Shown here piece by piece: positions 455 to 32,759 of a stretch of 64,000 nucleotides of DNA. Below the pieces are notes generated by a model. That model had not been told where the DNA came from. It saw only the letters and a program-made list of their open reading frames with translations, and ran no database searches. The position numbers were made by a program, and so were the translations under genes. The DNA lies in NCBI GenBank assembly GCA_965247115.1, contig CBDFGR010000002.1:1120001-1184000 (forward strand). The letters run 5' to 3'. The stretch is from Myxococcota bacterium (lineage in GTDB: Bacteria; Myxococcota_A; UBA9160; SZUA-336). Within the stretch, counting starts at the first letter, position 1. Each line of letters starts with the position of its first letter.

Positions 455-484
455 TGACGATCCACCATTGAGGGCTAGAGGCGC

Positions 485-1474: not shown

Positions 1475-1624
1475 CGTCTAACTCTCTCAGTCATGTACCA
1501 AACCAACGAACCCCGCGGATTATAGCCTATGAGAGGTCCCGCCCACATGCTCGGAGCGTGCAGCGTGCCAGGATGCGCGCCCGAGTGATATGATGCACCC
1601 TGACGAGTTCCACCAATCGCGCGC

Positions 1625-2542: not shown

Positions 2543-2554
2543 GGGGTCGTTGCG

Positions 2555-3907
2555 ATGGCAACTGACGCAGCGATTAGAGTCACTCACCTTTCGAAGAAGT
2601 ATCAGCTCTTTGATTCCAAGGCCCATCGAGTCCGCGAGGCTCTCCATCCTCTCCGCCGCACCTATCACCGAGAATTCTGGGCCTTGAAGGACATCAACCT
2701 CGAGATCCCGAAAGGCCTCACCGTAGGCATCCTGGGTCTCAACGGCTCGGGGAAATCAACTCTTCTTCAGATCATTGCTTCGGTTCTCGAACCGACGGCC
2801 GGTACGGTCCAGGTCGACGGAAAGGTCGCTGCGCTTCTCGATCTCGGAGCCGGACTCAACCCGGATCTGACCGGACGTGAGAACGTAGTCCTGAGCGGAA
2901 CGATCATGGGGCTCAGCCGCGAGCAGATTCTCGAGCGCATGGACGAGATCGAGTCCTTTGCCGACATTGGGCAGTTCTTCGACCAGCCTATGAGGACCTA
3001 CTCGTCTGGCATGTTCATGCGCGTCGCCTTCTCGACCACGATCTACGTGGACCCCGAGATCCTACTGATCGACGAGGTCCTCTCCGTCGGAGACATCAAG
3101 TTTCAAGAGAAGTGTTTCCGCCGACTCAGAGGTCTGCAGGAAGCTGGGAAGACCATCCTCATTGCCACTCATGATCGCTCGATGGTGCCGCGAATCTGCG
3201 AGCTCGGCTTAGTGTTGCATCAGGGTGAGCTCGTCGAGCTAGGAGAGCCCGCTCGAATCATCGACCTGTACGGCCAACTGCTAGCCTTCGGTCAGGTTCA
3301 GGACGAGACCGCTGTTCCAGGAGTGAACCTGACTTCCGTTGAGAGTGTAGACGCCTGCACGCAACCGACTCGAGAAGTCGTCGACCCGATCAAGGCCTTT
3401 CTCGAGAATCCCTCAGTTGAGGATCGGTGTAATCTGAACCCCACGTATAACAAGTATGAGCAGCGAAGCGGCGACGGGCATTGCGAGATCATCGACTTCC
3501 TGATCCAGGAAGGATCCAACCTCAACCCGAGTAGTATCTACGCAGGTGGTCACGTGGACATCTATGCAAAAGTGCGCTTCCACTCAGAAGTCGAGAGTCC
3601 CATCTTCGGTCTCGAGTTCATGAACAAGGAAGGCGTCATCCTCTATGGAATCAATACCGAGATGATGATGAAGAGCCTCGAGTCCGGGAGGCCCGGCTCT
3701 ATTCGCTGCTATCGCTTCAGAGTACGGGCGGCACTCTCACCCGGTGATTGGTTCATCTACTTCTGCATTGCCCGATCCTCGACCGAACTCTGCGACTACC
3801 GCTGCGCCCTCTCGCATCTCCATGTCATGGAGCAGCATCGATACACCGGACTCACGAGGTTCGAGACGGAGTTTCGAGAGCTCGAGGCGACGGATCCCTT
3901 TCCCTGA
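2555..3907 (+). CDS. wzt: ABC polysaccharide exporter ATPase with C-terminal carbohydrate-binding (Wzt-C) domain
   Basis: FWALKDI, Walker A GLNGSGKST, signature YSSGM, Walker B ILLIDEVLSVGD, plus about 170 aa beta-rich C-terminal domain. Confidence 0.93.
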   Translation: MATDAAIRVTHLSKKYQLFDSKAHRVREALHPLRRTYHREFWALKDINLEIPKGLTVGILGLNGSGKSTLLQIIASVLEPTAGTVQVDGKVAALLDLGAGLNPDLTGRENVVLSGTIMGLSREQILERMDEIESFADIGQFFDQPMRTYSSGMFMRVAFSTTIYVDPEILLIDEVLSVGDIKFQEKCFRRLRGLQEAGKTILIATHDRSMVPRICELGLVLHQGELVELGEPARIIDLYGQLLAFGQVQDETAVPGVNLTSVESVDACTQPTREVVDPIKAFLENPSVEDRCNLNPTYNKYEQRSGDGHCEIIDFLIQEGSNLNPSSIYAGGHVDIYAKVRFHSEVESPIFGLEFMNKEGVILYGINTEMMMKSLESGRPGSIRCYRFRVRAALSPGDWFIYFCIARSSTELCDYRCALSHLHVMEQHRYTGLTRFETEFRELEATDPFP

Positions 3908-3913
3908 ACGGAG

Positions 3914-5596
3914 TCAATCAGCAGTCGGACTCTCGGGATGCGGGACCCTCGATACTGCAGGAAAGTCAGGCCACCAGCCATGGTAGGCAGCGACAAGTGA
4001 GATGTCCGGTAGCATCTCGTAGTCTTCTCCGTCGATGCAGCCGAGAATCACCCGGAAGGTGTTGACAGGAGAAATTCGGTCATAGAGTCGAGATCTGCAG
4101 GCGCCGGGCAGGCGAATACTGTTCAGAATCCCGAACACTTCCAGGACATCGTCAGAAGTCCATTCGGCCGCTGGACGCTCTCGCATCTTGTTGATCATCG
4201 TAGTCCCGTGATCTCCTTGAACGACGATGATCGCCTTCGGGTCGACCTCGATTATGGCGTCAATCGCATCACGAAGCTGAGCTTCCATGCACGGGACCTG
4301 CTCACGATAGGCGATCTCCAGGGCGGACCGAGTCGGTTTTGGAGTGCGCCCGTATATGCGTAGCGGGTGCTGATAGTCGCATTGGCTATCGAATGCCAGG
4401 TTGTGGACACCCATGAAGTGGACGAACCAAAAGAAGGGCCACTCGTCCTCACCCGGGATGTCCCCCACAACATCGCGAGGCTGATAGGAATGAAAGAACG
4501 CGATCGTTCCATCCCGCAAATCAGGCAAATGGTCATCGGGTCCCGTTTCTGTCCAATCGGGCTCGAACCGATCTAGAAGCCAGAGAATCGGAGTCGCCTT
4601 GACCAATCCGAGCTCCTGCATCGTTACGAGGCGGCTTCGCTTGCGGATACATCTATCCTCGTACCCGCCGCACTCAGTTGCGGGCAGAAACCCGTTGGTG
4701 GTGTGCAGGATTTTGTAGCCTCGGGCTCGAAAGGCGGCTGTCACCGGGCTGTTTCCTCTGAGCAGGGCCCCGCCATCTGCCGTGGTGTTGTATATGGCTT
4801 CGGGGCCCTCCTCTACGATGAAGTCCATGTTGAGTGTGCTGGAAATCGAGTAGGCCGTGACCGGGAAGTTGGAGTAGCTCTCATCAGCGACGAAGAAGCC
4901 ATTTGACTCGAGATAGTCGATGAACTCGGAGTAGTCTGACTCGTAGAACTTCTGAAAGGCGTCGTTGCGCACGAGCGAGTCAACAGTCAGATGGTAAACG
5001 TTAGGCCTTGATTCGGGGAGATTGCTGGGCTGGATGAGGGGCTGGCCGCGCCATGGCTTGTAGGTTCCCCTGGCCAAATGCCCTGGCATCTCTGGCAGCT
5101 CAGGGCCGGCGCGCTGAGCCACCGCGGAGGCAACGACAGATACACTCATAAGCAGGAGAACCGCCGGAAGGATTCTACGAATCATCGCGAACCGGGGCAC
5201 GAAGTAGAACGCGATGCAGAGGACGAGCGTGACCACACCCCAGGAGACGATCTTGCCGTGGTCCCACTCCTGCGGAAGCACACCGACCAGGCTGTGGTAG
5301 TTGAAGAACATCAGCGCAAGCGCTGCGGTCGCGTATAGGCACTTCACTGTCGACCGGAACAGCGTAAGTGCGAGGATGGCAACGTAGAGCGGAAGCGAAG
5401 CGAAGAGGCTGAAGACGAAAGCGGCGAGGAAACGCGGATTGTCTATGTACTCGGCGTCTGCATAGTTAAACGCCCAGAGATTGCAGAAGGGCCATGCGAG
5501 GGCCAGCACCAGGACAGCCACTCCGCCGAGGATCTGGCTTCCGCGTCCAGGTCTGCCGCCTGGGACACCTGGCTGTCCTCCTTCTGCTATCGTCAT
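3914..5596 (-). CDS. Membrane-anchored alkaline phosphatase/sulfatase-superfamily protein (LtaS/EptA-like architecture)
   Basis: About 5 N-terminal TM helices, then PNVYHLTVDS, SNFPVT (candidate Thr nucleophile), FVHFMGVH and IIVVQGDHG. Confidence 0.75.
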   Translation of the reverse strand: MTIAEGGQPGVPGGRPGRGSQILGGVAVLVLALAWPFCNLWAFNYADAEYIDNPRFLAAFVFSLFASLPLYVAILALTLFRSTVKCLYATAALALMFFNYHSLVGVLPQEWDHGKIVSWGVVTLVLCIAFYFVPRFAMIRRILPAVLLLMSVSVVASAVAQRAGPELPEMPGHLARGTYKPWRGQPLIQPSNLPESRPNVYHLTVDSLVRNDAFQKFYESDYSEFIDYLESNGFFVADESYSNFPVTAYSISSTLNMDFIVEEGPEAIYNTTADGGALLRGNSPVTAAFRARGYKILHTTNGFLPATECGGYEDRCIRKRSRLVTMQELGLVKATPILWLLDRFEPDWTETGPDDHLPDLRDGTIAFFHSYQPRDVVGDIPGEDEWPFFWFVHFMGVHNLAFDSQCDYQHPLRIYGRTPKPTRSALEIAYREQVPCMEAQLRDAIDAIIEVDPKAIIVVQGDHGTTMINKMRERPAAEWTSDDVLEVFGILNSIRLPGACRSRLYDRISPVNTFRVILGCIDGEDYEMLPDISLVAAYHGWWPDFPAVSRVPHPESPTAD

Positions 5597-5718
5597 CTCC
5601 TACTCAGCCGTCGGTTCGCTCAAGCAGGCCCCCTCGTATCGATTCAGCGACTAGGCGCTACCGTAGTGTATCATGATCACGAGCACTGGCTGCGTTCGTG
5701 CGCCAAGGAGACGTTTCG

Positions 5719-6054
5719 ATGACAAAGTATGTTGTTCTTGTCGGCCTCGTGTATTTCGCCTTGTTCCTGGTCCCCAGCGCGAACGCTGGGCTGCTGGTTC
5801 AGGACGGCCAGGTCACCATGGTGTCGAACACCACCGGAAACCAGTCCCAGTACAAGGTCGATGTCGTCGGAGGGACTGGCTTGTGCGCGGATACCACTCT
5901 CATCTTCAATGAGGCAAGGGCCGGAGATCATGAGGTCTTCAAGCGCGGTTTCGCCGTCGCTCTCACGGCGCTGGCAACGCGATTGCCGGTGACGGTCTAT
6001 TCCTATGACGACGATAACTGTTACAGCTCCGCCTACATTCACATCCGGGACTGA
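5719..6054 (+). CDS. Small secreted protein with two Cys (possible OB-fold)
   Basis: AAGGAG RBS at 5705-5710; signal peptide ending ANA; about 88 aa mature domain. Confidence 0.7.
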   Translation: MTKYVVLVGLVYFALFLVPSANAGLLVQDGQVTMVSNTTGNQSQYKVDVVGGTGLCADTTLIFNEARAGDHEVFKRGFAVALTALATRLPVTVYSYDDDNCYSSAYIHIRD

Positions 6055-6122
6055 GTCGGCGCTCCTAGGGCACCTCTCGCAGAGAGTCTGACGCCCTGAA
6101 GGCCTTCCTCGGCTCCAGAGGA

Positions 6123-7481
6123 ATGGGGATCACCGGGCCAGCAACCTACGCTCAGTGGCAGAGCCGGATCTTCGCGGTCTCTTGGGCAACATACTTCGCC
6201 TACTACCTGTGCCGACTGAACATGACGGTGGCGAGCACTCCTCTTCGAGAGACCTTCTCGTGGAGTGCTGCGGACCTCGGAAAGGTCTTCTCATCGCTGA
6301 CCCTCTTCTACGCCATCGGTCAATTCGTGAACGGTCAGCTCGGAGACCGATTCGGCGCTCGTATCATCACTTCCCTTGGAATTCTCGGTTCCATCGGGAT
6401 GAACTGCGCCGTCTTCGTCCTCAGCAGGTACGCGCCTCCAGACGTAGGCCCAGGAGGAGCGAGTTTGACCCTGCTCATCTGCTTCTGGGGTGCCAACGGG
6501 TTCTTTCAAGCGATGGGGTGGGCACCACTCGTAAAGGTGATGGCGAACTGGTTCCCGCTCCTCGGTCGCGGGAGGGTAATGGGATGGTTTGGTACCTCCT
6601 ATCAGCTTGGAGCGGCGGCCGCCGTGGCGCTCGCAACGTTTCTCACTGGCTACTACGCCCATGAGCTCAGTGGCGATTGGCGAATGGTCTTCCTTGTTCC
6701 TTCCGGCATCTTTGCGCTCGTCGGAGTGCTGTTCTTCTTGTTTGTAAGGGATTCTCCCGCTGACCTTGGAGTCGTAGATCCGAGCAGCACCGCCGCGAGC
6801 GAGATGCGAATCGAGCCACGGCCCATACTTCACAACATCCTTGCGACGGTCCGGGATCCGAAGCTGCTGATCATTGCGAGTGCGTTCTTTCTGCTCGACG
6901 TCAATCGCTACGGGTTCGTAAACTGGATGCCGGCGTTCCTCGATGATTCATCGCCCAGCAATTCCAGCCCATTGCTTGCAAACGTCGAGAAGGCCATCAA
7001 GCTTGTCATCCATCCTCTCGCCGGTTCCGTCGGAGCTATCGTCGCAGGCTGGGCCACGGATCGGTTCTTCGGGGGACGACGCGCGCCCGTCGTCGCGATC
7101 CTGCTGGTTGGACTGGGGATCTTCTCCTTCGCGTTCGTCTCCGTCGATCCCAACGACACGTTCTGGGTCGTCAGCATCGTTGCCATGGTGGGATTCTGTA
7201 CCTACGGGCCACACATCCTCATGGTCGGACATGCAGCGCAAGACTTTGGTCGTGAGCAGGGATCTGCTAGCGCGGCGGGGTTCATCGACTGCATGGGATA
7301 TATCGGGGCGACGCTCGCTGGCTGGGGCGCGGGGATCCTCATCGAGCGCGTGGGGTACGCCGTGACCTTTCAGACGTTCGGCTACGCTGCAATTGCCGGG
7401 GCCGCCCTGATCAGTTTGCTGTGGCGTACCAGGCCGGTCGCAACACGGCCCCACCAATCGATACGAGTTGGTGTCCGCTGA
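6123..7481 (+). CDS. MFS transporter, organophosphate:Pi antiporter (GlpT/UhpT) family
   Basis: YYLCRLN, GQLGDRFG, NGFFQAMGW, ANWFP..RG, AAGFIDCMGYIG; 12-TM pattern. Confidence 0.85.
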   Translation: MGITGPATYAQWQSRIFAVSWATYFAYYLCRLNMTVASTPLRETFSWSAADLGKVFSSLTLFYAIGQFVNGQLGDRFGARIITSLGILGSIGMNCAVFVLSRYAPPDVGPGGASLTLLICFWGANGFFQAMGWAPLVKVMANWFPLLGRGRVMGWFGTSYQLGAAAAVALATFLTGYYAHELSGDWRMVFLVPSGIFALVGVLFFLFVRDSPADLGVVDPSSTAASEMRIEPRPILHNILATVRDPKLLIIASAFFLLDVNRYGFVNWMPAFLDDSSPSNSSPLLANVEKAIKLVIHPLAGSVGAIVAGWATDRFFGGRRAPVVAILLVGLGIFSFAFVSVDPNDTFWVVSIVAMVGFCTYGPHILMVGHAAQDFGREQGSASAAGFIDCMGYIGATLAGWGAGILIERVGYAVTFQTFGYAAIAGAALISLLWRTRPVATRPHQSIRVGVR

Positions 7482-7488
7482 GCACGAC

Positions 7489-8640
7489 TCAAGCTCGTGG
7501 CGGAGCCAAGTTTTCAAAGGCCTCGATCAGTAGCTGACGCGCTCCGGCTTCGTCGATCGTCGCGAGATTGTTCCCTGCCCGCTCCGGTGCGATAAGCCGC
7601 CCCTTGAGTCCAGCAAGAGCGCCTCGGTCGGGAACGTGAGCTCTTACCAGCCCTGCGAGATCGGCTATCTGGAAGAGTCCGTCCAAGCGCTCGAGCGCCC
7701 GCTCCAGGCTCTCGCAGCCAAGGGACTCGATGACGAGACAGGTACGTTCGGCCGCGACGGAGTGGTTCAGGCGGAGGACCTGCGGCAGTGTGAAGCTGAC
7801 GGCCAGCCCGTGCGGCAAACCGAGCTCGGAAGTAATCGGATAGGAGATCGAGTGCGCGAGGGCGGTGCGGGTGTTGCTGATGGCCACTCCCGCAAAGTGA
7901 CTGGCGAGCTGGAGGGTCTCCCGGACCTCGAGGTTGCCCGGAGTCTGGAGCACGAGCTCCAATGCGTCCGGGATCCGGCTGATGGCATTTACGGCGAACA
8001 GGTCGGACACGGAGCTGGCATTCCGATTCCAGATTGACTCCATGGCGTGCGAGAGCGCGTCGAGAGCGCTCGCGATCGTGGCCTCTCTGGGGAGCGAGAC
8101 CGTCAGCTCGGGGTCCAGGATAGCCAGGTCGGGGAATAGTCCGGGATGAGTGAGGGAACACTTAGCCCCCGTATGTTCGTCCCAGAGCGTCGCAAAGGGT
8201 GTAACTTCGCTGCCCGTCCCCGCCGTGGTCGGGACCGCGATGAGCGGGCCCAGATCCAGTCCCTCAGCAAGTGGTCGACCGTCGCGAAGGTGGGCCTCGA
8301 AGTCCTCCTCGGAAACCTCGGGGGCCCTCAGAACTGTCACCGCCTTAGCCGTATCAATCGCGCTTCCGCCACCCACTGCGAGCAGAACGGGTCCCGGCCT
8401 TTCCTTCTCCAGCTCCCGCGCGGCGGCGAGACAGTCGTGAATGGTCGGGTTGGGTGATACTCCGGTGTACACATTTCGCAGCCGGGTCCCGAGTAGACGC
8501 TCGACCCGTTCCAACGTACCGCGGCGCAGCGCCCCTGCCGTCATCACAGCTACGGCGTCCCGTCCACCGAGCAGCTCCGGCAGCGCTCTCAGTGACGAGC
8601 GGCCGGTAACCAGCCTAACCGGATTTCGAAACTCTCTCAC
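7489..8640 (-). CDS. Phosphonoacetaldehyde reductase (group III Fe-containing alcohol dehydrogenase; makes 2-hydroxyethylphosphonate)
   Basis: GGGSAIDTAK, PTTAGTGSEVT, DALSHAMES, AHSISYPIT, HGLA; last gene of the pepM-ppd-mpnS operon (GTGA overlap). Confidence 0.88.
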   Translation of the reverse strand: MREFRNPVRLVTGRSSLRALPELLGGRDAVAVMTAGALRRGTLERVERLLGTRLRNVYTGVSPNPTIHDCLAAARELEKERPGPVLLAVGGGSAIDTAKAVTVLRAPEVSEEDFEAHLRDGRPLAEGLDLGPLIAVPTTAGTGSEVTPFATLWDEHTGAKCSLTHPGLFPDLAILDPELTVSLPREATIASALDALSHAMESIWNRNASSVSDLFAVNAISRIPDALELVLQTPGNLEVRETLQLASHFAGVAISNTRTALAHSISYPITSELGLPHGLAVSFTLPQVLRLNHSVAAERTCLVIESLGCESLERALERLDGLFQIADLAGLVRAHVPDRGALAGLKGRLIAPERAGNNLATIDEAGARQLLIEAFENLAPPRA

Positions 8641-10004
8641 GGCTCATCGATGCGATTGCGTCCTGCGGGATCGAACCACTGGACCGTTTCCGCGGCAACG
8701 CGTTCACGGCCCGCGGCATCGATCCGCGAGAGCTCTCGCATGGGGTCCCCAGCCATCCGACCTCCGACTCGCAGCGTGAGAACGGTCGCGCCATCGCCCG
8801 CGAAGGCGTGAGGGACGAACGGCTTCATGCAGAATGAGTCCCCGGGATGAAGCCGCTCGGAGAAGGCCTGGCTCTCGATTGTCCAATGCACTTCCAGCGG
8901 CCGATCGCCAACTACATAGCCGTATTGGTGCAGGCCGGCTCTCAGATCGAGCTCACGGAGTTCTGAGTCCAGAACGTTGACCTCCAGCGACTTCGAGTGA
9001 GCAAGGTGATGCGTGGAGGCTAGCTCGACCATCCGATATCGAGAGATTCCGTCGGGATAGGTCCAGGACGGGCATTCAGCATAGTGGCGGACTACCACGG
9101 GCTCCTCGACCTCGTTCGGCGGATGGAGCTCTCGCGAGTCCACGCCCAGAGCAGCCGCGAGGGCGTTCAGCTCTGCCCGGGTGGCAGCGCGAACGCCGGC
9201 GCGCAACTCTCCGAGACGTGTCGCAGAAATGGCAGAGCGCCGCTGCAGCTCCTCATGACTCATGGACAACGCCTCTCGGTGAAACTCCAGCAGGCGGGCG
9301 GCCGCCCGCTCGGGGGCGCTGAGATCGAGGACGTACGCCTCACGCTGCTCGACTCCGAGAGTTGAGAGCTCTTGGCGAGCATCCCCGGCGAGCTTGTCCC
9401 CGTAGGTCAGGGCCAGTATGCAGCCGGGCTCGCGAGCCTTGGTTGAGCGCACAGCGAAGCTGTGAGGAACGAAGGGCGTGATGTACATCGAATCGCCCGT
9501 GTTCATCACCGCCACCTGTTTCTGGCCATCCCGCCCCCGATGGTAGAAATTGACCGGGCCCACGAAGTAGGTGAACTGGTGCATGAAGTGGCCGTTATTC
9601 CACTGGATTGCTTGGTCCTCTGGGTCATCAGTCGTGACCTCGCAGAGCTCCTTGATCCACTCTGGCCGGAACGGGGCTACCGCGCTCATGGCTGTGTCAC
9701 GATATTCGTAGTAGGGCTTCCCGGCACGATCCATCACCCGGGCCGACTCGACCGACTCCGAAGCGCGCATGACGCGTAGGCCTTTCGGATTGTCGTCTAG
9801 CATCGGGAGGAAGTCCCGTAGGCTCATCGGCCAGATCTCCACTGCCCGCAAAACCAATTCGAAGGGGATCTCAACCCGCTCTTCAAGTAGGTCCTGCATC
9901 TCGGCCTCGGAGACTCCGAGCTCCAGGGCCGCGTCGGCCGGTCGACGCTTGAGGTCGTTCAGAATGCCTCGCAGGTGGTGTCCGGTCATGATCCGCTCAG
10001 ACAT
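8637..10004 (-). CDS. mpnS: Methylphosphonate synthase
   Basis: GILNDLKRRP, RAGKPYYEYRDTAMS, APFRPEWI, WNNGHFMHQFTYF, VNF, MNTGDSMYITPFVPH, ETVQWFDP are colinear with Nitrosopumilus MPnS as I recall it. Has the His/Gln/His iron triad plus the Phe162 and Ile184 equivalents. Start ATG 10004 overlaps the upstream stop. Confidence 0.92.
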   Translation of the reverse strand: MSERIMTGHHLRGILNDLKRRPADAALELGVSEAEMQDLLEERVEIPFELVLRAVEIWPMSLRDFLPMLDDNPKGLRVMRASESVESARVMDRAGKPYYEYRDTAMSAVAPFRPEWIKELCEVTTDDPEDQAIQWNNGHFMHQFTYFVGPVNFYHRGRDGQKQVAVMNTGDSMYITPFVPHSFAVRSTKAREPGCILALTYGDKLAGDARQELSTLGVEQREAYVLDLSAPERAAARLLEFHREALSMSHEELQRRSAISATRLGELRAGVRAATRAELNALAAALGVDSRELHPPNEVEEPVVVRHYAECPSWTYPDGISRYRMVELASTHHLAHSKSLEVNVLDSELRELDLRAGLHQYGYVVGDRPLEVHWTIESQAFSERLHPGDSFCMKPFVPHAFAGDGATVLTLRVGGRMAGDPMRELSRIDAAGRERVAAETVQWFDPAGRNRIDEP

Positions 10005-10740
10005 CGTCTCCTCCAGCGTTTCGGTAGTCCTCCAGCGTGTCGATCTCGGCCCACCCACCCCTTATGGGAAAGGTTCGAACGACTTGCCCAGAATCGATGA
10101 GCTCCTGGAACATGTCGGTCAAGTACGCCTTCCGGAACGTCGCCGCTTGCTGGAAGGGTCGATCCAACCCCTGGGCCTCGATCTCGTGGAAGGTCCGAAC
10201 GAGAACCTCTAGCCCTGCGCGCTCGATCTTGCAAAGCCCGATGAACTCGGAGTCTGATTCTGCCGGACTGAGGTGCTTGCCTATGCGCACGACGCAACCG
10301 TTCTCGCTAACGATGTTCTCAGCCTCCTCGACAGGGTGGTCGAGGCGACCGACATAGCCAGAGCGCCAGTCGAAGTCTGCGACGACACAGAAGGGTCCGT
10401 CGTTGCGCACCAGGCCCTGAGCAACCTCTGGCTCATAGACGATATCGGAGTAGCTGACCACCAAGTCATCATCGAACTCGGACTCCGCGTAGAACAGGGA
10501 GTGAAGGATATTGTTGTTCAGATAGTCCGGGTTCAGATAGGACCGAGTTCCAGGAACATGTAGCTTCTCAGCGCGATGTCCCTTGACGATAGCGATCTCC
10601 TCGATGCCGGCTGCACGCAGCGCGCGGATCTGATACTCGATGATGGCCTTCCCACGGACGCGCAGCGTACACTTTGGTCGCTCCAGCGTGAGTGGCGCCA
10701 GCCGACTCCCTGGCCCGGCCGCGACGATGATTCCCTTCAC
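9997..10740 (-). CDS. Stand-alone nucleotidyltransferase (LicC/PntC-like, probable phosphonate cytidylyltransferase)
   Basis: AAGPGSRL...PK, SYSDI, EFIGL, WAEIDT motifs; lies between ppd and mpnS. Confidence 0.82.
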   Translation of the reverse strand: MKGIIVAAGPGSRLAPLTLERPKCTLRVRGKAIIEYQIRALRAAGIEEIAIVKGHRAEKLHVPGTRSYLNPDYLNNNILHSLFYAESEFDDDLVVSYSDIVYEPEVAQGLVRNDGPFCVVADFDWRSGYVGRLDHPVEEAENIVSENGCVVRIGKHLSPAESDSEFIGLCKIERAGLEVLVRTFHEIEAQGLDRPFQQAATFRKAYLTDMFQELIDSGQVVRTFPIRGGWAEIDTLEDYRNAGGDDV

Positions 10741-11900
10741 GTCTCTGCCAGCCAGCTCATGAAGAGCTCCTTGACCTGCGGCGGAGCGAGCTTTGGTCGG
10801 CCGAGGTTAGGAATCGAGCCGGGTGCGACTTTGACATGGATCAGGTTTGGACCGGACATCTCACGGGCTTCGCGGACGTGGAGTGCGAGCGAGCCTATGG
10901 AGTCCACGCGCCAGACATGTCGATAGCCGCAACCCGCCGCGACCGTGGCAAAGTCGACGGTCGGGGAAACTGTGGGCTGCCCACCGGTGGAGTCGTGGAC
11001 CTCGTTGTCAATCACGACGTGCGTCAGGCCCGAGGGCCCATAGTGCCCGATGGTTCCTAGCACTCCCAGCTTCATGAGAGAGGCACCATCACCGTCCAGG
11101 ACGACGACGCGGCGTAGTCGTCCCACTCGCCGGCTCGCCTCGTGCAGGCCGAGACCAATCGCCGACGCGCAGCCCATGGACCCGACCACGTAGAGCTGAT
11201 TCGGTCGATGCCCAAGCGTGAAGAGTTCGCGGCCTATTTTGCCGGTTGTAGCAATCAACGCCTCATCGCCCTCCAGCGCACCACGAATCGTCCTGATCGC
11301 TTCGATTCTGGGCATCCGTTCCGGACCCGCGAGCTCAAACACGCCTACGGGGATGGCCTGGGCTCCCACCGACACGGGGGTAGCGGGAAGTGCGCGAGCG
11401 TCATGCAACGCCCCGTGCTTCACGATGAACGCGAACGGCCGACTAGAGGCATCGATCGCCTTCTCTGCCCGCTCCAGCGCTGGCTCAATCTCAGAGACCT
11501 GATCCGGGAACACCTCCCAGGGGACGTGGACGACCTCCAGCAACCGCTCGATGATTCTCCCCATAAGCTCGTGCTGCGGCTCATCGTCCAAACCGGGAGC
11601 GCCACGGTGGCTCACGAGAAGCAACGTAGGGATCCGGAACGGGTACTGAAGCGACGTCAGCGGATTGACCATGTTCCCCAGGCCGGAGTTCTGACACAAC
11701 GCGACGGACTTGCGTCCTGCGAGGTGCGCACCTGCAGCAATGCCAAGAGCCTCACCTTCGCTCGCAGCGCCGATATAGTCGAGGTCCACACCGCCACAAA
11801 CGCGGTTGATTAGCGGCGTCAGGAACGAGCACGGAACGCCAGACCAGAACGAGTACCCACGACGAAGGACTCGAACCACGAAGTCGTCGGCCTCGATCAT
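10737..11900 (-). CDS. ppd: Phosphonopyruvate decarboxylase (ThDP-dependent)
   Basis: [41 protein letters not shown] overlap with pepM. Confidence 0.95.
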
Positions 11901-13555
11901 CGCTCCGGCCTCTGCCCGGGCCCCCTGTAGCGATCCGCTGCGATGACATCCTGCCACTCATCGATGTCGAACCAGTGCCCAACGGTGTAGAGGCCATCGA
12001 TGGAGACGCCTGAATCGAGCAAGAGGTTGAAGAGCTCGGGCATGCGCATCTCGTCGACCCGATCTCTCACGCTAGGCTCCTCGAGCGCTTGTCGGATCCG
12101 ATGAAGACCCTCGGTGGAGAGTTTCATCATCCCGATCCACTCACCGTGAATCGGCTCCTCCACCTTTCCGTCGATCGCCGCCACCACTCTCTGGAGCGAG
12201 GTTGTTAGATCGAAGTCCTCTCGCCGATAAGGGTGCGCGCAGCGAACGAACTCGCCATATCGTCGGCGGTTCTGCGATTGCTCCCAGCTCGGATCGACGG
12301 CAAGACAGATGTCCGCCTCAGACTCGAGCAAATGCATGGGGATGAACTTCTGGAATAACACGTCCCCATAGCTAACCAGCACCGGCCCTTGAATGCTCTC
12401 CAGACCGGCGCGGAGAGAGTAGACAACCTGTGCGGTGTCGTAACGATCGTTGTCGACGTATCTCAAGTCGGGGAGATCGATAGCCTCCTTCTTGTACCCA
12501 CGAACCACAGTAATATCTTCGAGTCCCAGCTCCCGGAACGTATCGACCTGTTGTGAGAGGAGAGGCTGACCGCTGATTGAGACCATCGCCTTCGGGCGAT
12601 CCTGCGTCAGCTCTCCAAGCTCGGAGCCGCGAGAGGCAGCCAGCACGAGGGCCTGAGCTGAGGTCTTCCGAGGGAGGTAGCGCTTCTCTGCCTCCCTCAG
12701 CTCCTCTGCGCCCTGGAGGCGGAAGACCTCGGAGACAGGGACGATGCGCTCCTCGATGTCGAGAAGCGTCTCCTCATCGTGGAGCTGCAGTGCAACTCGC
12801 TGCATGCTCGTCATGCTCGCGCGCATCAGGTGGTTTGCCCAGATCACCACCCGGAAGCCCGCTTTTCGGAAGACATCAGTCGGAGTGCTGTAGTACATCG
12901 TCGGAACGATGATCACCGGGGAGCGTTCGCCCCACTCGCCCTTGAAGGCCAGAACCTCATCCGGGCGACGCAGCTTGGAGTGGATCAAGATAGCGTCGGC
13001 ACCCGCACGACGATACGCCTCCGCCCGCTTGAGCGCCTCCGCGAGTCCGAGTCCGGAGATGAGAGCTTCCACTCGAGCCACGATGCAGAAGTCGTCGTTG
13101 AGCTGCGCGTCCTTTCCAGCCTTGATCTTGCCTGCGAACTCGTCGATGTCCGCGAGGGGCTGCGTTCCGCCTTCGATGAACGAGTTGGTCTTCGGATACA
13201 GCTTGTCTTCGATGCAAACACCAGCCACGTCACGCGCCTCGAGTTTGCCAACGAGCCTCCGCATGTTGTTGAAATTCCCGTACCCCGTGTCGCCGTCCAA
13301 GAGCAACGGGATCGTCGTTGCGTCCGTGATGTACTCGAGGATGTCCAGGACCTGGGTCCAGCTGAGCTCGTTGTTGTCGCGTACTCCGCAGGCTGCGGAT
13401 ATAGACAGGCCGCTCCCCCAAAGGCCCTTGAACCCAGCCTCTTCGGCGATCTTGGCGCTCAGCCCGTTATGCGCCTCCATCAGGAAGCTCAGCGAGGGGC
13501 TGGCAATGAGCTCGCGCAGTCGTGTCGCCCTCGATGCAGCGGCCAGGTCAACCAT
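11897..13555 (-). CDS. pepM: Phosphoenolpyruvate mutase fused to a C-terminal nucleotidyltransferase domain
   Basis: [15 protein letters not shown], diagnostic EDKxxxxxNS ([10 protein letters not shown]); C-terminal LAASRG...PK, SYGDV, WFDID. Start at 13555 overlaps the upstream stop. Confidence 0.96.
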
Positions 13556-14723
13556 CTCCGCCTCGCTCTGCCCTCTCCGCAGCCTCGAGGATGCTCCGCG
13601 CGCCGACACTTCCACTCGTTCCGAGGTTGTAGACGCAGCGATCGCGAATCGCGCGCAGCCTCTCACGCTGACGCTCGGGAGTCGCACAGAGCTCGGCGAT
13701 CCGCTTGCGCGCCTCCGCAACATCGTCGGGAGCAACCACCGACCCGATTTCCGCTCGAATCCCGGCCTCTAGCGGCTCCATCCCCAGTTTCTCCCACCTC
13801 GGGTTGTTCACCTTCCGCGGAGTATCGACGAACAGCACGGGTCGTTCCAGCCCGAACGCGTACTCAAGGGCCGCTCCCGACCAGTCGCTGATCATGATGT
13901 CCGAGGTGTGTAGGGATTCCTGGCCGCTCACATCAGTTTCGACTGTGAGAGATCCGCCTCCTCCAAAGCGTGACCGCAGGCTCGCGGGCAGCTCAGGAAA
14001 CCGGCGAGTTGTCATCGGGTGAAGTCTCACAGTCAGCCTCAGACCCTCTTCCAGGAGTCCCGCGATCCAGTCGTCCGCCCACTCGGACTCGATGAGCGAG
14101 CCTCCTCCCCACGAAGGCGCCATGAGGACGTGAAGTCCTGAGCGGTCGGTTGGATCAGAAGCGGACCGTTTCGCGGCCTGCGCCCGAATCTCGTCGAGCC
14201 GCCCGTACCCGTGCTCGATGAGGCGCCGCTCAGGCAGCCCGTACACGTCCTCGGCTCTCCTGAGCTCCTCGACATGGTGAGGTCCGGCGCAGAGGAGCGT
14301 ATCATAATGATCAAACGCTCCTTCCCTGTAGATCATGTGCGTACTCACGAGCGAATGGAAGACGTATATGTAGTGGACGGGGTGAGAAGAGCGTTTCAGA
14401 TGAAAGCGGTCGAGATCGGGGAGCGTCATCACGAGCACCGAAGCCTTGAGCCCGCGAAACAGGATCGTCCGGATCGACCCTGAACCGATGCAGAAGGCCC
14501 GGACGTTCGGATGCCCGGCCCGGAAGATGGGATCGTCGGCCTCCGAGGTCAGATAGCAGATGGCATGGCCGCGCTGGCAGAGCTCGGAGATGATCGGTTG
14601 AAAGTGTGGCCAGTCGTGAAGACCTTCGGCATAGAACACGATGCGTCGCGCGTCCCTGGGCAGGGCCGAGAAGCGCCGCAGCTCGGACCATTCCGCACCA
14701 AGTCGCTTGAGCGCCGTGAACAT
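13548..14723 (-). CDS. CDP-glycerol glycerophosphotransferase (TagB/TagF-like) family protein
   Basis: [45 protein letters not shown]; coupled to pepM. Confidence 0.85.
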
Positions 14724-14778
14724 CCAGTCGCTTGTGCCCCGTCGGATCAGGTTTGATCACCGGACGTACCTGAGAAAC

Positions 14779-15030
14779 CTAGTCTGAGTCGTTGGCCGGG
14801 TGAACTTCTCGTCGGGCGTCGTCGCCTGCGGCCTTGCCGCCAAAGACTGCCTTGAGGCGACGCCAGTAGGCCTTTGCCAGGAACGCGGCTGCAGTGATGC
14901 TCGCGATTGCCGCCTGAAGGAGCATGCTGGTAGTTCCAGCATCGATATAGGCGAGCGCATCACGCGGGAAGGCTACGACCAAGACGGCCAGGGGAACGCC
15001 GCTCCAACGAGCAAATCGACGGAGGCTCAC
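14779..15030 (-). CDS. Small membrane protein with YIDxG motif
   Basis: Signal-like N-terminus, then AYIDAGTTSMLLQAAIA, a hydrophobic helix and WRRLK. GTG start inferred; the longer ORF-track call overlaps the GT2 gene. Confidence 0.65.
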   Translation of the reverse strand: MSLRRFARWSGVPLAVLVVAFPRDALAYIDAGTTSMLLQAAIASITAAAFLAKAYWRRLKAVFGGKAAGDDARREVHPANDSD

Positions 15031-15107
15031 CGGGGTGGGCGGGGGGGATGCGCGCACGAGCCCCATCGTATAGATGCTCCCGAATCGGATCAACTTCGAG
15101 CCTTGCA

Positions 15108-16202
15108 TCAGCTCTTCCAGGCCGGAGGAGTCAGAAGATCGAGCACCCTTGCTCCAGCCAAGCCCGCGATCGCCAGGAGCCTGAGGCCCAGCCTGCGTCC
15201 ACTGCTTGCGACGGCGGCTCGAGAGGCAAACACCTCCGCGCGGTGGCCCAGCATCCATTGCAGGTAGCGCCAACCCAGGCCCCAGTGGACGGGGTTCGTC
15301 ACCAGGACGGTGAGCATCTGACGGCCAAACGGCGAAAAGAGACCTGGGCGGGCTCTGAAGATCGGAGCCACATCTCGGTTTCGAGGCTCCTTTACCGCAC
15401 TCACAAGTGCCTTCAGCACTCGTCTTTGACGCACCGAATCGGACATCCCGGATCCGGAGTAGGTCCCGGGAGTCTCGCGCATCAGCGCTAGCGTCTCGGG
15501 TACCACACACGCTCCGTGACGCAGAGCGAGGATGTAGAAGACGAACCACTCCGAGTGCCATTGGAGCTCTGGGCGAAACGCACCTGCCTCGAGGAGGGCG
15601 CCCCGGCGAGCGAGCACGGTATTCCCCGACATCCACAAATAGCTGGTGGCAAGCCTGCGCTTCAGGGCAGCTGGAGGCAGAAAGCGAGCTTCCTTACCGA
15701 GGTCGAATGCCAGCCCGAGGTCGAATGCCAGCCCTGTGGCCGAGTCGCCCAGATACTCCCGAATGCGCTCCGTTCCATCCTCGAAGACAGCCAGCCGAGA
15801 GAAGCACACTCCCGCCTCCGGATGAGAGCGGAGGATCCTCATGTTGCGCTCCAGGAAGCGGGGGAGAAGCCGGTCGTCAGCAGATGCCCACACCACGAAG
15901 TCCATCGACGCCAGGGTCAGGGCGCGCTCGATGGAGGTCATGAGCCCTCGGTTCCTCTTGTTGCGGACAAGGGTGACGAAGGGAAATCGGCGCACGAATC
16001 CCTCGATCACAGCCACGCTGTCATCGGTGGAGCCGTCGTCCACCACGATGACCTCGTCCGGCTGGAGCGTCTGGCCACAGATCGCTCCCAGGGAGTCGGG
16101 GAGATATCTGGCGTGGTTGTAGTTGCACAAGAGGATCGACACCGTCGGTCGGCCTCGTGGCTCTCTGTGCGCTTCCACGGCCGACCGACTCAGCGGGCCC
16201 AT
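15108..16202 (-). CDS. Glycosyltransferase family 2
   Basis: VSILLCNYNHARYL, VIVVDDGSTDDS, WASADD; similar to the GT2 at 1-454. Confidence 0.9.
   Translation of the reverse strand: MGPLSRSAVEAHREPRGRPTVSILLCNYNHARYLPDSLGAICGQTLQPDEVIVVDDGSTDDSVAVIEGFVRRFPFVTLVRNKRNRGLMTSIERALTLASMDFVVWASADDRLLPRFLERNMRILRSHPEAGVCFSRLAVFEDGTERIREYLGDSATGLAFDLGLAFDLGKEARFLPPAALKRRLATSYLWMSGNTVLARRGALLEAGAFRPELQWHSEWFVFYILALRHGACVVPETLALMRETPGTYSGSGMSDSVRQRRVLKALVSAVKEPRNRDVAPIFRARPGLFSPFGRQMLTVLVTNPVHWGLGWRYLQWMLGHRAEVFASRAAVASSGRRLGLRLLAIAGLAGARVLDLLTPPAWKS
15697..15732. repeat. Perfect 18-bp in-frame tandem duplication
   Basis: CCGAGGTCGAATGCCAGC twice, encoding GLAFDL-GLAFDL in the GT2. Confidence 0.95.
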
Positions 16203-18805
16203 GCTCGCTCGAAGAAGCCCGGGTTGAGGGCGTCAGATCGCCGCATGACTACCCGCCACGGGGCCGGCAGCTTGTATGCCGAGCGCCTGATCAGCAACCC
16301 GTCGTGAGGGTTCACGTAGCGCCTGCGCTGCTTGATGTAGATCACGCTGCGAGTCTTCGCCGCCATGAGGCCCAGGTAATGGGCAATTTGCTCCCGCCGC
16401 ATCTCGTGCAGGGAGCTGACCGTAGCGCAGGCGTCGAAGTAGCCGTCCGGAAACATCTCGAGCTGGTTGGGGGTGAGAAACGCCAGATCCGCCTGCTCGA
16501 GCTCTTCTGCAACTTCAGCGTAGCTCGAGAACGCGCGAAACTTGAAGATACGACGGTCGCTAAAGAGCCTCGAGAGGTACCACTGCGACACATAGAGCGC
16601 CGGTGGAATGTCGAAGACGACGTATCGGCAGGGGGAGGTCGCAAGGAGCACGTGTCCGAGACGGCCGTACCCTGCCCCCAATTCGGCTATCAAGGTGGGT
16701 CGATCTCGTCCTGGCTCTGACTGAGTGTAGGAAACGTCCAGCGCGTCGACGATGGCGTTCCGCTCTCGCACCGAGTTCGCGAGATCCTGGGAGATCATCC
16801 GCCCATCGCGACGAACGCGGATCGGATTCCCTAACTCAGGCTCCTCCAACTGCGCGAGCACGCCCTCGCGATCGCTCCTGAGCACGTACTCATGAAGCGA
16901 GGCAACGTAGAGTTTGTACAGCTTCAGCCGACGCTCCCGATCGTCCTTGAAGATGTAGTAGTCCTCTACCCACGATAACCACAGCCGCGGGTCGCAATCG
17001 GGATCGTCGATCTCGTAGCGCACGAGTGCGGGCATCCCGCGCCTCAGCCAGAGCCTTACCAGGTTGACGATCTTTGGATCCCAAAGCGACGAAGGAACGA
17101 AGTTGAAATAGGCCTGATTGACCGTTCGCTTGAAGTGGGGCTCGCCACCAAAACCCAGCAGTGTGGTGTGGTCTCGATTCATCACTTCCCAGAACTTCGA
17201 AGGTCGGTAGATCTCGGGCGCCGACTCGAGCTCGCCCCGCATCCGTTCGATCTCCACTCGACCTTCCGCACTCAGTAGGTTCCGCTCCACGCCCCTTCTG
17301 TGCAGATAACGAACGACATCTCCGTGATGACCAGCACTAGCCAAGGAGAGGGCCTCTCCGCCTCGTGCAGCCGCATCCGCCCCGTTCTCATGCAGGTACC
17401 TCACCAGATCCAGGTGCCCAGCGTTCGCGGCTGCGCGTAGCGGTTCATCTTCCGCTTCTCGGATGTCGGCCCCGTGCTGGTACAGCGTCCGCACCGCCTC
17501 CAGGTACCCGCCGCTCGCCGCTGCCCGCAGCGCCGCGCCATGCCCTGCGTTGGCGTCGGCACCGATCTCGAGGAGCTTCCGAAGGCTGTCGAGATCCCCT
17601 GCGCCTGCCGTTCTAATGACAGCGCCCTCGTCGAACGCGCGAGGGTCTCCGCCTCCGAGCCGGATGTATCTGGCGACCTGCGGGTGGCCGCGCGCCTCGA
17701 CTTGACGGAGCAGCTCCGCACCACACGCGCTCAGGTTGGCCCCATTTTCATGGAGATACCGCACGACGCCCATGTGTCCGCCGAGTGCAGCTCCCCGAAG
17801 TGCGGCTTCCCCTCCGGCCCGCAGGTCGCCACCGCTCGCGTGCAGGTACCTCACTACCTCCTGGTGCCCGCTTGCTGCGGCAGCCTGAAGCGCTGCGTCC
17901 GATCCTGCCCGGATGTCCGCGCCGGCCGCGTGCAGATACTCCACTGCTCCCAGGTGGCCGTTCGATGCGGCCGCGCGCAGGGCGCGGCCATCCCCCGCGT
18001 TGGCATCGGCACCGATCTGTACGAGCTGCGCCAGACCCTCCAAGTCTCCCGACCGGGCCAGGGCAACGAGGGCGTCCTCATCGAACGCACGCGGATCGCC
18101 ACCTCCGCGGCTGATGTAGCGCGCTGTCTGGCGATGCCCGTGCTCTTCGATTTGACACAGCAGCTCTGCGTCGCACGCGCCCAGGTCCGCCCCGTTCTCG
18201 TGGAGATATCGCACAACGCCCAAGTGTCCGCCGAGTGCCGCTCCCTGAAGTGCGGCTTCCTCTCCGGCTCGCAGGTCGCCACCGCTCGCGTGCAGATACT
18301 CCACTACCCCCAGGTGGCCGTTCGACGCGGCCGCGCGCAGCGCCTCGTCCCCGCCGGCGTGGATGTCGACTCCGTTCGTGTGCAGATACATCACGACGCT
18401 CACGTGGCCATTGCACGCTGCGCCCTGGAGGGCAGGCTGCCCAGCAGCTCGGATGTTGACTCCGTTTTGATGCAGGTACTCGACCACCTCAAGATGCCCG
18501 CTGGCCGCCCCACCGCGCAGCGCAGAGTCGCCTCCTGCCCGAATGTCCCCGCCAGCACCGTGCACGTATCGCATCACCTCCAGGTGACCTCGGGAAGCCG
18601 CCTCGATGAGCGCAGCGTTATCTCCGGCTTCGACTGCGGCGCCTCGTTGAACCAGGGAGGTGGCGATCTCCAGATTGCCTGCAGCGGCTGCCGCTAGCAG
18701 CGCGTCATTCAGGTCGAGCTGGGAGCAAGTCCCGCTGCTGAGCATGCGATCCACACCAGGGAGATCCCCGGTCGAGGCAGCGGCACACAGCTCGTCGTGT
18801 GTCAT
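16190..18805 (-). CDS. Ankyrin-repeat protein fused to a putative sugar O-methyltransferase
   Basis: About 16-17 ankyrin-like repeats of about 30 aa (ALRAAAxxGHLxVVxYLHxxGAD), then PSKFW, FKRTV, SAM motif ELGAGYGRL, FDIPPALYVSQWYL, SLHEM. Confidence 0.85.
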   Translation of the reverse strand: MTHDELCAAASTGDLPGVDRMLSSGTCSQLDLNDALLAAAAAGNLEIATSLVQRGAAVEAGDNAALIEAASRGHLEVMRYVHGAGGDIRAGGDSALRGGAASGHLEVVEYLHQNGVNIRAAGQPALQGAACNGHVSVVMYLHTNGVDIHAGGDEALRAAASNGHLGVVEYLHASGGDLRAGEEAALQGAALGGHLGVVRYLHENGADLGACDAELLCQIEEHGHRQTARYISRGGGDPRAFDEDALVALARSGDLEGLAQLVQIGADANAGDGRALRAAASNGHLGAVEYLHAAGADIRAGSDAALQAAAASGHQEVVRYLHASGGDLRAGGEAALRGAALGGHMGVVRYLHENGANLSACGAELLRQVEARGHPQVARYIRLGGGDPRAFDEGAVIRTAGAGDLDSLRKLLEIGADANAGHGAALRAAASGGYLEAVRTLYQHGADIREAEDEPLRAAANAGHLDLVRYLHENGADAAARGGEALSLASAGHHGDVVRYLHRRGVERNLLSAEGRVEIERMRGELESAPEIYRPSKFWEVMNRDHTTLLGFGGEPHFKRTVNQAYFNFVPSSLWDPKIVNLVRLWLRRGMPALVRYEIDDPDCDPRLWLSWVEDYYIFKDDRERRLKLYKLYVASLHEYVLRSDREGVLAQLEEPELGNPIRVRRDGRMISQDLANSVRERNAIVDALDVSYTQSEPGRDRPTLIAELGAGYGRLGHVLLATSPCRYVVFDIPPALYVSQWYLSRLFSDRRIFKFRAFSSYAEVAEELEQADLAFLTPNQLEMFPDGYFDACATVSSLHEMRREQIAHYLGLMAAKTRSVIYIKQRRRYVNPHDGLLIRRSAYKLPAPWRVVMRRSDALNPGFFERAWAR
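17400..18300. repeat. Internal 450-bp (five-ankyrin) block duplication; ends approximate
   Basis: GCAGGTCGCCACCGCTCGCGTGCAG occurs at 17821 and 18271; the protein motif GGGDPRAFDE recurs 150 aa apart. Confidence 0.85.
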
Positions 18806-18830
18806 GAACGCGCTACTAGGCTGCCAGACG

Positions 18831-20024
18831 TCATTCGTAGGCGTTCAGAGTCTGGATGAGCCGATCGATCGTATTGGCCGGCAGCTCAGCGTGGGGCTGG
18901 CTCAGCGACGCAAGGAACTCTTTGTACAGGCGGTATTCTCGTCGTCGGCCACTCGTGGTCGCGGTGGAGACGGTCCGATCTCCTGCCAGTCGAAATCGTC
19001 GAACAAGCTCGTGCATCCGTGTCCCAGGGACGACGCGAGCTCGAGCTGCTCGTACGAGCCGAGCCAGGTGGCTGTTGCTGGGTTGCGAGGCGGCCGCGGC
19101 GAGGCGCGGCCAGTATCCTCGCATGATCTCTCCCCGTTCCTCATCCTTCATCAAGGCACTGACCAGGTAGTTCATGATCTCCGGGGTGATGTACTCGGAC
19201 AGGTACTTCAGGTGGATGAGATCGATCAGCTTCAGAAGCGCTGTCGGGGTAGTCTGATCGGATCCGTACTTGCCGAACGCCCGAAGTAGGATTGCACGAT
19301 ATCTCCCGTAGTCCGCAACCAGCTCCTCTGGCGAGGAGATCATGAATTCGACGGGGTGCCAGTGCTGATACGGCTCCGATGAACCGAGAGAACGCCCGTA
19401 GTAGAGGAGTGGCAACCTCGCGACCTTCCCCGCAACGGCCGTCAACGCACCTGCGAGAAGCTCCCGACCAAGCAGGCTTTGCACTCGTTGTACTTCGCGA
19501 AGAACCTCACGCGCCACATCAGTCCGATAGAGACCGTACGTTACGGCCTCGTATCCATTCATCGTTTCTCGCAGCCGCAGCAGCGGCTCGTCCTGATCAA
19601 AGGAGGGTCTCGAGTACACAATCGAAGTGATGCCGAAGTGAACGTTGTCGTAGAACGAGAAGTACCAACCGTGAGCTGCGCTATAGTCAGGACGGGCGTG
19701 GAGAAACTCAAGTAGAGGAGGGAGAGCGTCCAACACGACGACATCGTCGTCTGCGCATATCGAGCAGAACTCCGTCTTGACCTCCTGACATCCGCTCCAG
19801 AACTTCTCCCACGGCATGACCGAGGAGCCGTACGATACGAAACGAACATCCAGATCGATTCTGTCAGCCAGGCTGGAATTCGCCGTCTTGCTCTCATCGC
19901 TTCCCGAATCGAGCACGAGAATTGGGAAGTCGGCCGACTGACGGGCGAGATATTCGAGTAGTCGCGCCAGCTGGGACGTGCGATTGTAAGTGGGGATGAG
20001 GAGGGTGAAGTCCTTCGAGTTCAT
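18831..20024 (-). CDS. GT2-like glycosyltransferase
   Basis: FTLLIPTYNR, ILVLDSG, CADDD, AAHG, YGLYRT. Confidence 0.8.
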   Translation of the reverse strand: MNSKDFTLLIPTYNRTSQLARLLEYLARQSADFPILVLDSGSDESKTANSSLADRIDLDVRFVSYGSSVMPWEKFWSGCQEVKTEFCSICADDDVVVLDALPPLLEFLHARPDYSAAHGWYFSFYDNVHFGITSIVYSRPSFDQDEPLLRLRETMNGYEAVTYGLYRTDVAREVLREVQRVQSLLGRELLAGALTAVAGKVARLPLLYYGRSLGSSEPYQHWHPVEFMISSPEELVADYGRYRAILLRAFGKYGSDQTTPTALLKLIDLIHLKYLSEYITPEIMNYLVSALMKDEERGEIMRGYWPRLAAAASQPSNSHLARLVRAARARVVPGTRMHELVRRFRLAGDRTVSTATTSGRRREYRLYKEFLASLSQPHAELPANTIDRLIQTLNAYE

Positions 20025-22971: not shown

Positions 22972-23107
22972 GCGTAGCAGATGTCCCCGACCGCGAGAGG
23001 CTGTGCGGCGACAGTATAGCTGGGGAGAGCTGCTCCCCCCGCACTCCCGGTTCTTCGCAGCGGGGCGGTCAGATTCGCGGGAGCGGCCCAGTGTAAAATC
23101 GCGGCCC

Positions 23108-23854: not shown

Positions 23855-23869
23855 AAGACTCGGAGCGCC

Positions 23870-24640: not shown

Positions 24641-24688
24641 GTCGGTACCTCAGCGCGGCACACGGCCGCAACCCGACCATTAGAATGC

Positions 24689-26104: not shown

Positions 26105-26131
26105 GGCTACGCCGGCGCTCGACACGCGTAC

Positions 26132-26137: not shown

Positions 26138-26144
26138 TCTGAGC

Positions 26145-32756: not shown

Positions 32757-32759
32757 GGA

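Follow-up and report, generated by a model that had tools for sequence, protein, structure and literature searches.

The locus described here raises the question of whether a high-GC bacterium makes methylphosphonate (MPn) and, if so, what becomes of the product. The window, a stretch of 64,000 nucleotides (contig CBDFGR010000002.1, positions 1,120,001-1,184,000) to which all plain coordinates below refer, comes from a genome titled as a Myxococcota bacterium (5.17 Mb, 3 contigs, 98% complete; host genome G000, with contigs C2 and C3). In the minus-strand gene cluster at 7489-14723, built around the gene mpnS, we probably see a complete gene set for making MPn from phosphoenolpyruvate (PEP), together with likely activation of MPn as CMP-MPn and its ester attachment to a cell-surface glycan. 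The pathway is already known; what is new is an mpnS cassette in a further phylum and a starting point for studying how MPn is attached. Aerobic methane formation draws on MPn esters, and the literature examined does not establish how MPn joins polymers. A compact, translationally coupled cluster of this kind supplies candidate enzymes for both MPn activation and transfer, which could be expressed together.

The route from PEP through 2-hydroxyethylphosphonate (HEP) to MPn is established chemistry, and its four steps can be assigned here from that chemistry together with family membership. The original prediction placed six overlapping minus-strand genes in the cluster, and all six open reading frames (ORFs) are present with overlapping start and stop codons (gaps from the tagF-like gene to the last gene of -8, -4, -4, -8 and -4 nt, that is, overlaps of 4-8 nt). 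The co-directional run is longer than had been thought: it comprises ten genes (7489-20024) separated by no more than 55 nt, and the four that lie upstream of the six are two glycosyltransferase family 2 (GT2) genes, a fusion of ankyrin repeats with a methyltransferase, and a 95-aa ORF. This last ORF, a small membrane peptide at 14779-15066, is a seventh gene that the six-gene list had overlooked.

PepM (11897-13555, 552 aa, with a PF12804 nucleotidyltransferase domain fused at its C terminus) would convert PEP to phosphonopyruvate. It passes TIGR02320 (372 against a cut-off of 319.55) and has, at residues 116-125 as predicted, the EDK(X)5NS motif used as a criterion for PEP mutases (bioRxiv 2020.11.04.368217), of which it is the sole carrier among 48,067 six-frame ORFs of the host genome. 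Ppd (10737-11900, minus strand, 387 aa), which passes TIGR03297 (395 against 312.5), would decarboxylate phosphonopyruvate to phosphonoacetaldehyde, and an iron-type alcohol dehydrogenase (Fe-ADH; 7489-8640), likely the phosphonoacetaldehyde reductase (Pdh/PhpC) from its context and its best match, would reduce this to HEP. MpnS (8637-10004, 455 aa), a methylphosphonate synthase (MPnS)-type enzyme, would then use Fe(II) and O2 to turn HEP into MPn and CO2. Linked pepM, ppd and phosphonoacetaldehyde reductase genes thus stand beside mpnS, the reductase below its family cut-off, and the claim of a complete PEP-to-MPn gene set is supported.

Whether the product is MPn turns on the dioxygenase. 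Class I hydroxyethylphosphonate dioxygenases (HEPD; PhpD) have a 2-His-1-Glu iron triad, and the class II HEPD of Streptomyces albus makes hydroxymethylphosphonate. Against the Protein Data Bank (PDB), MpnS scores 482 bits with MPnS of Nitrosopumilus maritimus (6b9s), 300 bits with S. albus class II HEPD (6b9r), and 22-29 bits with PhpD and HppE. It is not a class I enzyme (23 bits and 20% identity to 3g7d, with Gln143 in the triad). As had been claimed, it aligns with 6b9s without gaps over residues 5-186, at an offset of +9, and H139, Q143, F153, I175 and H181 correspond to H148, Q152, F162, I184 and H190 of N. maritimus (K19 is a further residue noted in MpnS). At the two specificity positions the S. 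albus enzyme carries Tyr163 and Gly184, again as claimed; MpnS has Phe and Ile there and lacks the class II pair. The protein thus combines a 2-His-1-Gln triad, the Phe/Ile pair and a full-length tandem helix-turn-helix (HTH)-cupin repeat fold, and it shares about 49% identity over its full length with N. maritimus MPnS (6B9S/6B9T; EC 1.13.11.73), with the same triad and pair. An alignment-based model (pLDDT 86) superposes on 6B9T with a TM-score of 0.94 and a root-mean-square deviation of 1.8 Å, and on 6B9R with a TM-score of 0.89; given how close these two scores are, the fold scarcely discriminates between MPnS and HEPD. The accessible text of PMC11978286 treats the triad plus Phe and Ile as the criterion for MPn synthesis, and by it the MPnS-type assignment is supported.

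There is a slight chance that the enzyme is a class II HEPD or has mixed products, in which case the cluster would make hydroxymethylphosphonate. MpnS has the triad and the fold in common with S. albus HEPD (38% identity, and the TM-score just given), and proteins with Tyr/Gly at 47-52% identity to MpnS nest among thaumarchaeal Phe/Ile proteins, so that the switch between Phe/Ile and Tyr/Gly is evidently easy in evolution. Against this, Phe153 and Ile175 are both present, and the closest relatives (proteins P0002 and P0003, the Acidobacteriota locus L010, and fusions with a nucleotidyltransferase) are all Phe/Ile. A census of 169 partly redundant signature rows (the query, 49 loci and 119 proteins) gave H-Q-F-I-H in 155, H-Q-Y-G-H in 10, H-Q-Y-I-H in 3 and a partial signature in 1; among the best 150 representatives at 50% identity, the pair is Phe/Ile in 100, Tyr/Gly in 26 and something else or incomplete in 24. 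A tree had been put forward as the means of separating MPnS from HEPD, and when run it was not diagnostic, Tyr/Gly proteins being nested among Phe/Ile ones. In a FastTree phylogeny of 124 rows (those shorter than 330 aa or gapped at the signature being excluded), the query is sister to P0002, near L010 and the fusions, and its smallest supported clades are mostly Phe/Ile (15 of 19 rows), including Nitrosopumilus proteins; one Tyr/Gly pair is placed among Nitrosopumilus-type proteins. The Tyr/Gly label requires 5 changes, 4 of them forced by supported branches, and tree placement was therefore rejected as a discriminator; a quick 73-row IQ-TREE tree shows the same picture. The assignment is thus carried by the residues and not by the tree.

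The nesting is an observation in its own right. Tyr/Gly (HEPD-type) proteins lie among marine thaumarchaeal MPnS, and Tyr/Ile intermediates occur in SAR202; the rows with Tyr/Gly or Tyr/Ile are L023; P0026, P0027, P0033, P0043, P0044, P0055, P0078, P0083 and P0110; and L030, L031 and L035. The source label of P0044, a Tyr/Gly protein, reads methylphosphonate synthase, and other pairs at the specificity positions (Val/Met, Leu/Gly, Leu/Phe, His/Thr) are found in P0218, P0220, P0161, P0190, P0132 and P0173. Automatic names or tree placement thus misassign MPnS and HEPD, some Tyr/Gly proteins being labelled as methylphosphonate synthases.

If MPn is made, the next gene product would activate it. 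The stand-alone nucleotidyltransferase at 9997-10740 (minus strand) is LicC/PntC-like: its PDB matches include LicC and the Treponema denticola structure 6pd1, and as in PntC a PF12804/LicC-like domain is linked to ppm. Among the 119 other best homologues of MpnS, 23 are nucleotidyltransferase::MpnS fusions, whose nucleotidyltransferase part resembles 9997-10740 (51-58% identity) far more than it does the PepM-fused domain (26-32%). From these fusions and the LicC/PntC likeness, the stand-alone enzyme is likely to cytidylylate MPn, giving CMP-MPn. The PntC enzymes (Tde1415, Ari1348) and LicC share with the host the PF12804 domain, ppm fusion and linkage, and a cell-surface glycan context; in the accessible text of PMC6697681, PntC-type enzymes cytidylylate 2-aminoethylphosphonate (AEP), the substrate on which they were tested, and methylphosphonate, MPn, TagF and PF04464 are nowhere mentioned.

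Transfer from the CMP carrier would fall to the TagF-like protein (13548-14723, minus strand, 391 aa, without a transmembrane segment), which matches PF04464 with 31 bits against a cut-off of 22.1. A PDB search with the single protein found no match; the family profile did match, and only TarL and TagF (3L7I, 8VA1; E 1e-6, 7e-5). Two histidines, which we take to be the catalytic residues of the TagF/TarL type, are invariant among the homologues in all alignments covering each (His123 in 80 of 80, His235 in 69 of 69). TagF-type motifs and these histidines are thus held in common with the teichoic-acid polymerases; unlike them, the protein shows remote homology over its C-terminal part only, its family occurs in Gram-negative or archaeal hosts, and its donor is probably a CMP-phosphonate and not CDP-glycerol or CDP-ribitol. 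No genes of the CDP-glycerol/ribitol teichoic-acid pathway were seen in the annotated locus. We suggest that the protein works like TagF/TarL, and we do not file it as a member. TagF-like genes occur in 9 of the 49 related mpnS loci, in 7 of 401 genomes of the phylum, and in 4 of 8 pepM regions from related genomes, which have a class V aminotransferase (genome G005) or an Fe-ADH (G046) in place of mpnS. A single family of transfer enzymes may thus serve phosphonate head groups that can be exchanged for one another. A literature search on links of TagF, YidC or sulfatases to phosphonates returned nothing relevant by title and abstract start, most subscription journals lying outside its scope.

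Several points weigh against this account as a whole. Fe-ADH falls below the cut-off of its best model, the phosphonate-type TIGR03405 (338 against 423.7). The dioxygenase is assigned as MPnS-type from its sequence, and its product specificity would rest on two residues. The cluster has two nucleotidyltransferase domains, and which of them acts on MPn is a matter of inference. In the available DNA, much of it short, 40 of 49 mpnS loci are without a TagF-like gene, so that attachment evidently differs between carriers; and of 17 long TagF-like loci just 8 include phosphonate core genes, so that the TagF-like clade may move other groups too. Lastly, locus L010, which matches the six-gene order of the cluster (47-65% identity), adjoins regulators and lies outside any glycan locus, and the acceptor is accordingly not tied to the cassette.

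This last point bears on where MPn ends up. The host cluster lies at one end of a ~41-kb glycan locus (C2 ~1,100,800-1,141,800) with glycosyltransferases, nucleotide-sugar genes and a Wzm/Wzt ABC polysaccharide exporter with a Wzt_C domain (1625-3907, plus strand), and the acceptor would probably be the exported polysaccharide of that locus, reached directly or through the peptide. It is unlikely, though a real prospect, that MPn is made and activated but ends on a lipid, a surface protein or the peptide itself: the placement of L010 speaks for this, as do the near-invariant Tyr and conserved Ser/Thr of the peptide and a large Ig/Calx-beta surface protein that borders the locus, whereas the embedding of the host cluster among glycosyltransferases and Wzm/Wzt speaks for the polysaccharide, as does the N. 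maritimus product, described in the accessible text of PMC9381506 as MPn-modified exopolysaccharide. That text also raises MPn as a phosphorus store. An even slighter chance than that of an HEPD attaches to free MPn, as a small molecule or such a store, moved by the convergent UhpC/GlpT/PgtP-type major facilitator superfamily (MFS) transporter (6123-7481, plus strand), an organophosphate-antiporter type that abuts the operon end with a 7-nt gap; the nucleotidyltransferase and TagF-like protein would then act on something else. Here the translational coupling of the nucleotidyltransferase to mpnS and its fusion in 23 homologues tell against it, the MFS gene has no homologue in the mpnS loci searched, and for reuse of MPn neither phnJ (C-P lyase) nor a PhnZ-type HD gene was found in the host genome. 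Attachment to the adjoining polysaccharide is the reading we favour.

How the TagF-like protein would reach that acceptor may involve the small peptide (14779-15066, minus strand; 95 aa from ATG, start uncertain), which has an A-Y-[IL]-D-x-G-[TS] motif, a transmembrane helix and a basic tail. It shows no Pfam or NCBIfam family above cut-off and falls in an unnamed family with Atlas scores of 0.90-0.91, which serve as a lead only. We examined 77 metagenomic TagF-like loci, which are related, so that the counts are not independent events: 62 of them extend at least 400 nt beyond the TagF-like gene on its upstream side, and in 37 of these the peptide is the immediate upstream neighbour in the same orientation; counting any position in the locus, it is present in 57 of 77. 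These 77 loci also served to refine the peptide profile, which, as a control, picks out 2 of 48,067 host ORFs, each a true copy. Of 90 matches, 87 were parsed, and Tyr+1 and Asp+3 are each conserved in 85 of them; in L023 and L139 the peptide and the TagF-like protein share one reading frame. A homologue of the membrane-anchored alkaline-phosphatase/sulfatase-fold protein at 3914-5596 (minus strand, 4 transmembrane segments), a candidate outward-facing transferase with Thr247 at the nucleophile position, occurs in 30 of the 77 loci, 29 of them also with the peptide. In this family the nucleophile position is Thr in 23 of 26 and Ser in 3 of 26, and the putative metal residues D206 (26 of 26) and D462 (27 of 27) are kept. 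An EptA/LtaS-type membrane phosphotransferase would be expected to show an N-terminal transmembrane region, an alkaline-phosphatase-fold domain, a Thr nucleophile and metal-binding Asp/His; the profile of this family matches sulfatases as well as EptA.

Peptide, TagF-like protein and Thr-type sulfatase-fold protein may thus form an attachment relay. Tentatively, and with rather more doubt than belief, we hypothesize that the cluster holds a whole MPn attachment machine: the TagF-like protein would load MPn from CMP-MPn onto the peptide Tyr, the peptide would present it at the outer membrane face, and the sulfatase-fold protein would pass it to the glycan, the same peptide and outer transferase working elsewhere with interchangeable loaders (TagF-like proteins with AEP, HEP or MPn pathways, or a NoeA-like kinase-methyltransferase). 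If true, envelopes from SAR11 and Thaumarchaeota to Myxococcota would share a general peptide-shuttle route for their decoration with phospho- and phosphonate groups. The peptide Tyr is predicted to face outward and the TagF-like protein lacks a transmembrane segment, a topology problem for the shuttle idea, and in the peptide-TagF-like fusions a plain anchor role is the simpler reading. Only 4 of 49 mpnS loci have the peptide and 3 of 49 the sulfatase-fold gene, and L010 has neither nearby, which argues against a fixed role; in 4 of 5 tested genomes whose mpnS locus lacks a nearby peptide, one is found elsewhere. A complex prediction for TagF-like protein and peptide scored 0.00, run without controls, and is evidence neither way.

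Within the phylum, 25 of 401 genomes carry the peptide (27 matches); the next gene is a homologue of the host's NoeA-like gene in 18, a TagF-like gene in 2 and a sulfatase-fold gene in 1, and it was not resolved in the other 6, of which 4 precede long membrane ORFs. The host has a second Tyr peptide copy in another low-GC glycan region (G000:C3:2467638-2470828; L089:9638-12780), with a NoeA-like protein that has a methyltransferase domain and a membrane protein of the sulfatase fold encoded after it, a trio whose NoeA/NoeB label is presumptive. A comparable conserved trio with an alkaline-phosphatase-fold member, the small ORF-NoeA-NoeB unit (S. meliloti nodL-noeA-noeB; L. anisa Lani_1193-1195), is described without chemistry in the accessible text of PMC9758233; unlike in that unit, in the host cluster a TagF-like gene and the phosphonate pathway occupy the place of the kinase-methyltransferase. 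A YidC-like gene stands beside peptide and TagF-like genes in L070:11405-12577 and in L093, L127, L144, L151 and L152; the only one found in the host is far from the cluster, and this copy accordingly has no insertase of its own.

The cluster is not typical of its lineage. The surmise of a Myxococcota-like host likely holds in a broad sense and is not a formal classification: among 3 genomes compared, 16S rRNA identity is highest with a Myxococcota-titled genome (87%) and lower with one from Acidobacteriota (80%) and one from Elusimicrobiota (75%). The further idea of an under-recognised producer lineage was overstated, as mpnS was not found in 60 relatives searched with the host query and occurs in 2 of 401 phylum genomes, the host and G420 (same class, other family, 49%); four weak phylum matches (E 5e-4 to 1e-3) covered the HTH part only and were rejected. 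A Myxococcota-titled locus, L027, has mpnS in another gene order and clade, and L027 and G420 are not counted as independent. A pepM gene above cut-off occurs in 11 of the 60 relatives. Window positions 1-22000 have 60.9% GC against 65.7 +/- 1.6% for the genome (only 2 of 257 windows are lower), and third-position GC is 0.69-0.76 in cluster genes, 0.83-0.85 in 4 of 6 flanking ORFs and 0.64-0.66 in the other two. Positions 1-20000 have no match in the same-genus genomes G001 or G002, and 23085-40000 is syntenic in G002 at 83-88%. The mpnS unit is thus horizontally moved, strain-level accessory DNA and not a lineage trait; no match to mpnS was found in plasmid or phage collections.

Beyond the phylum, the 49 related loci come from archaea, SAR11, Gammaproteobacteria, Chloroflexota, Balneolota and Elusimicrobiota. 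The accessible text of PMC9381506 lists 37 mpnS genomes, among them Deltaproteobacteria (2 genomes), Gammaproteobacteria, Chloroflexi and Flavobacteriia, with mpnS in 0 of 19 Myxococcales rows; MPnS-type proteins are, from that survey and the Phe/Ile majority among the representatives above, already known to be broadly distributed. A literature search for mpnS in Myxococcota found only unrelated mentions, within a scope that left out most subscription journals and so does not show absence from print. Compared with the PepM-Ppd-Pdh-MpnS cluster of N. maritimus, the host has the same four pathway enzymes and a nucleotidyltransferase; unlike it, the host is a high-GC bacterium, with one translationally coupled run, a PepM::nucleotidyltransferase fusion, a TagF-like gene and the Tyr peptide. 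In the Nitrosopumilaceae loci examined, a soluble sulfatase-fold gene directly follows mpnS, and the host cluster is without that gene. The abundance of a lineage is a poor guide to how much MPn it supplies, since mpnS travels from one phylum to another as a cassette and has a patchy distribution among the members of a lineage.

The proposed role as a methane source stands in part. Other microbes can turn MPn into methane in oxygenated settings, its cleavage by C-P lyase releasing the gas. The MPn gene set is present; the link is only indirect, since no C-P lyase was detected in the host and the product is probably esterified to a polymer, so that any methane would come from other microbes that release and cleave MPn, and the claim for this host alone is of little weight. 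Two haem-copper oxidase-like genes, both below cut-off, suggest that the host is aerobic. A search of sequencing runs found 4 runs from one sample and no RNA run, and was uninformative on expression or habitat.

The rest of the run (all minus strand) begins with a GT2/TIGR04440 glycosyltransferase (18831-20024), followed by a gene that joins a long array of ankyrin repeats to a putative sugar O-methyltransferase of the NanM type (16190-18805, TIGR04371) and a second GT2 gene (15108-16202). Scans for promoters and terminators gave signal at or below chance. A radical-SAM gene (20182-21807), AT-richer in sequence, lies at the right edge of the low-GC region. The mpnS of L010 (L010:10001-11327) is frameshifted near residues 350-360, probably through an assembly error, its close homologue P0003 being whole. 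Phe/Ile-type mpnS genes also occur on contigs titled Nanoarchaeota, Woesearchaeota and Methanosarcinales (L002-L006, L016, L019, L021, L026, L032, L034, L043), which is unexpected because the enzyme is O2-dependent; the labels may be binning or naming errors. On C2, an 84-nt repeat has three copies after tRNA-Phe (L068:1047-1130, 2559-2642, 11792-11875), and pieces of the stretch that carries it match many places in G002 at 88-99%, a pattern resembling that of scattered mobile elements or cassettes.

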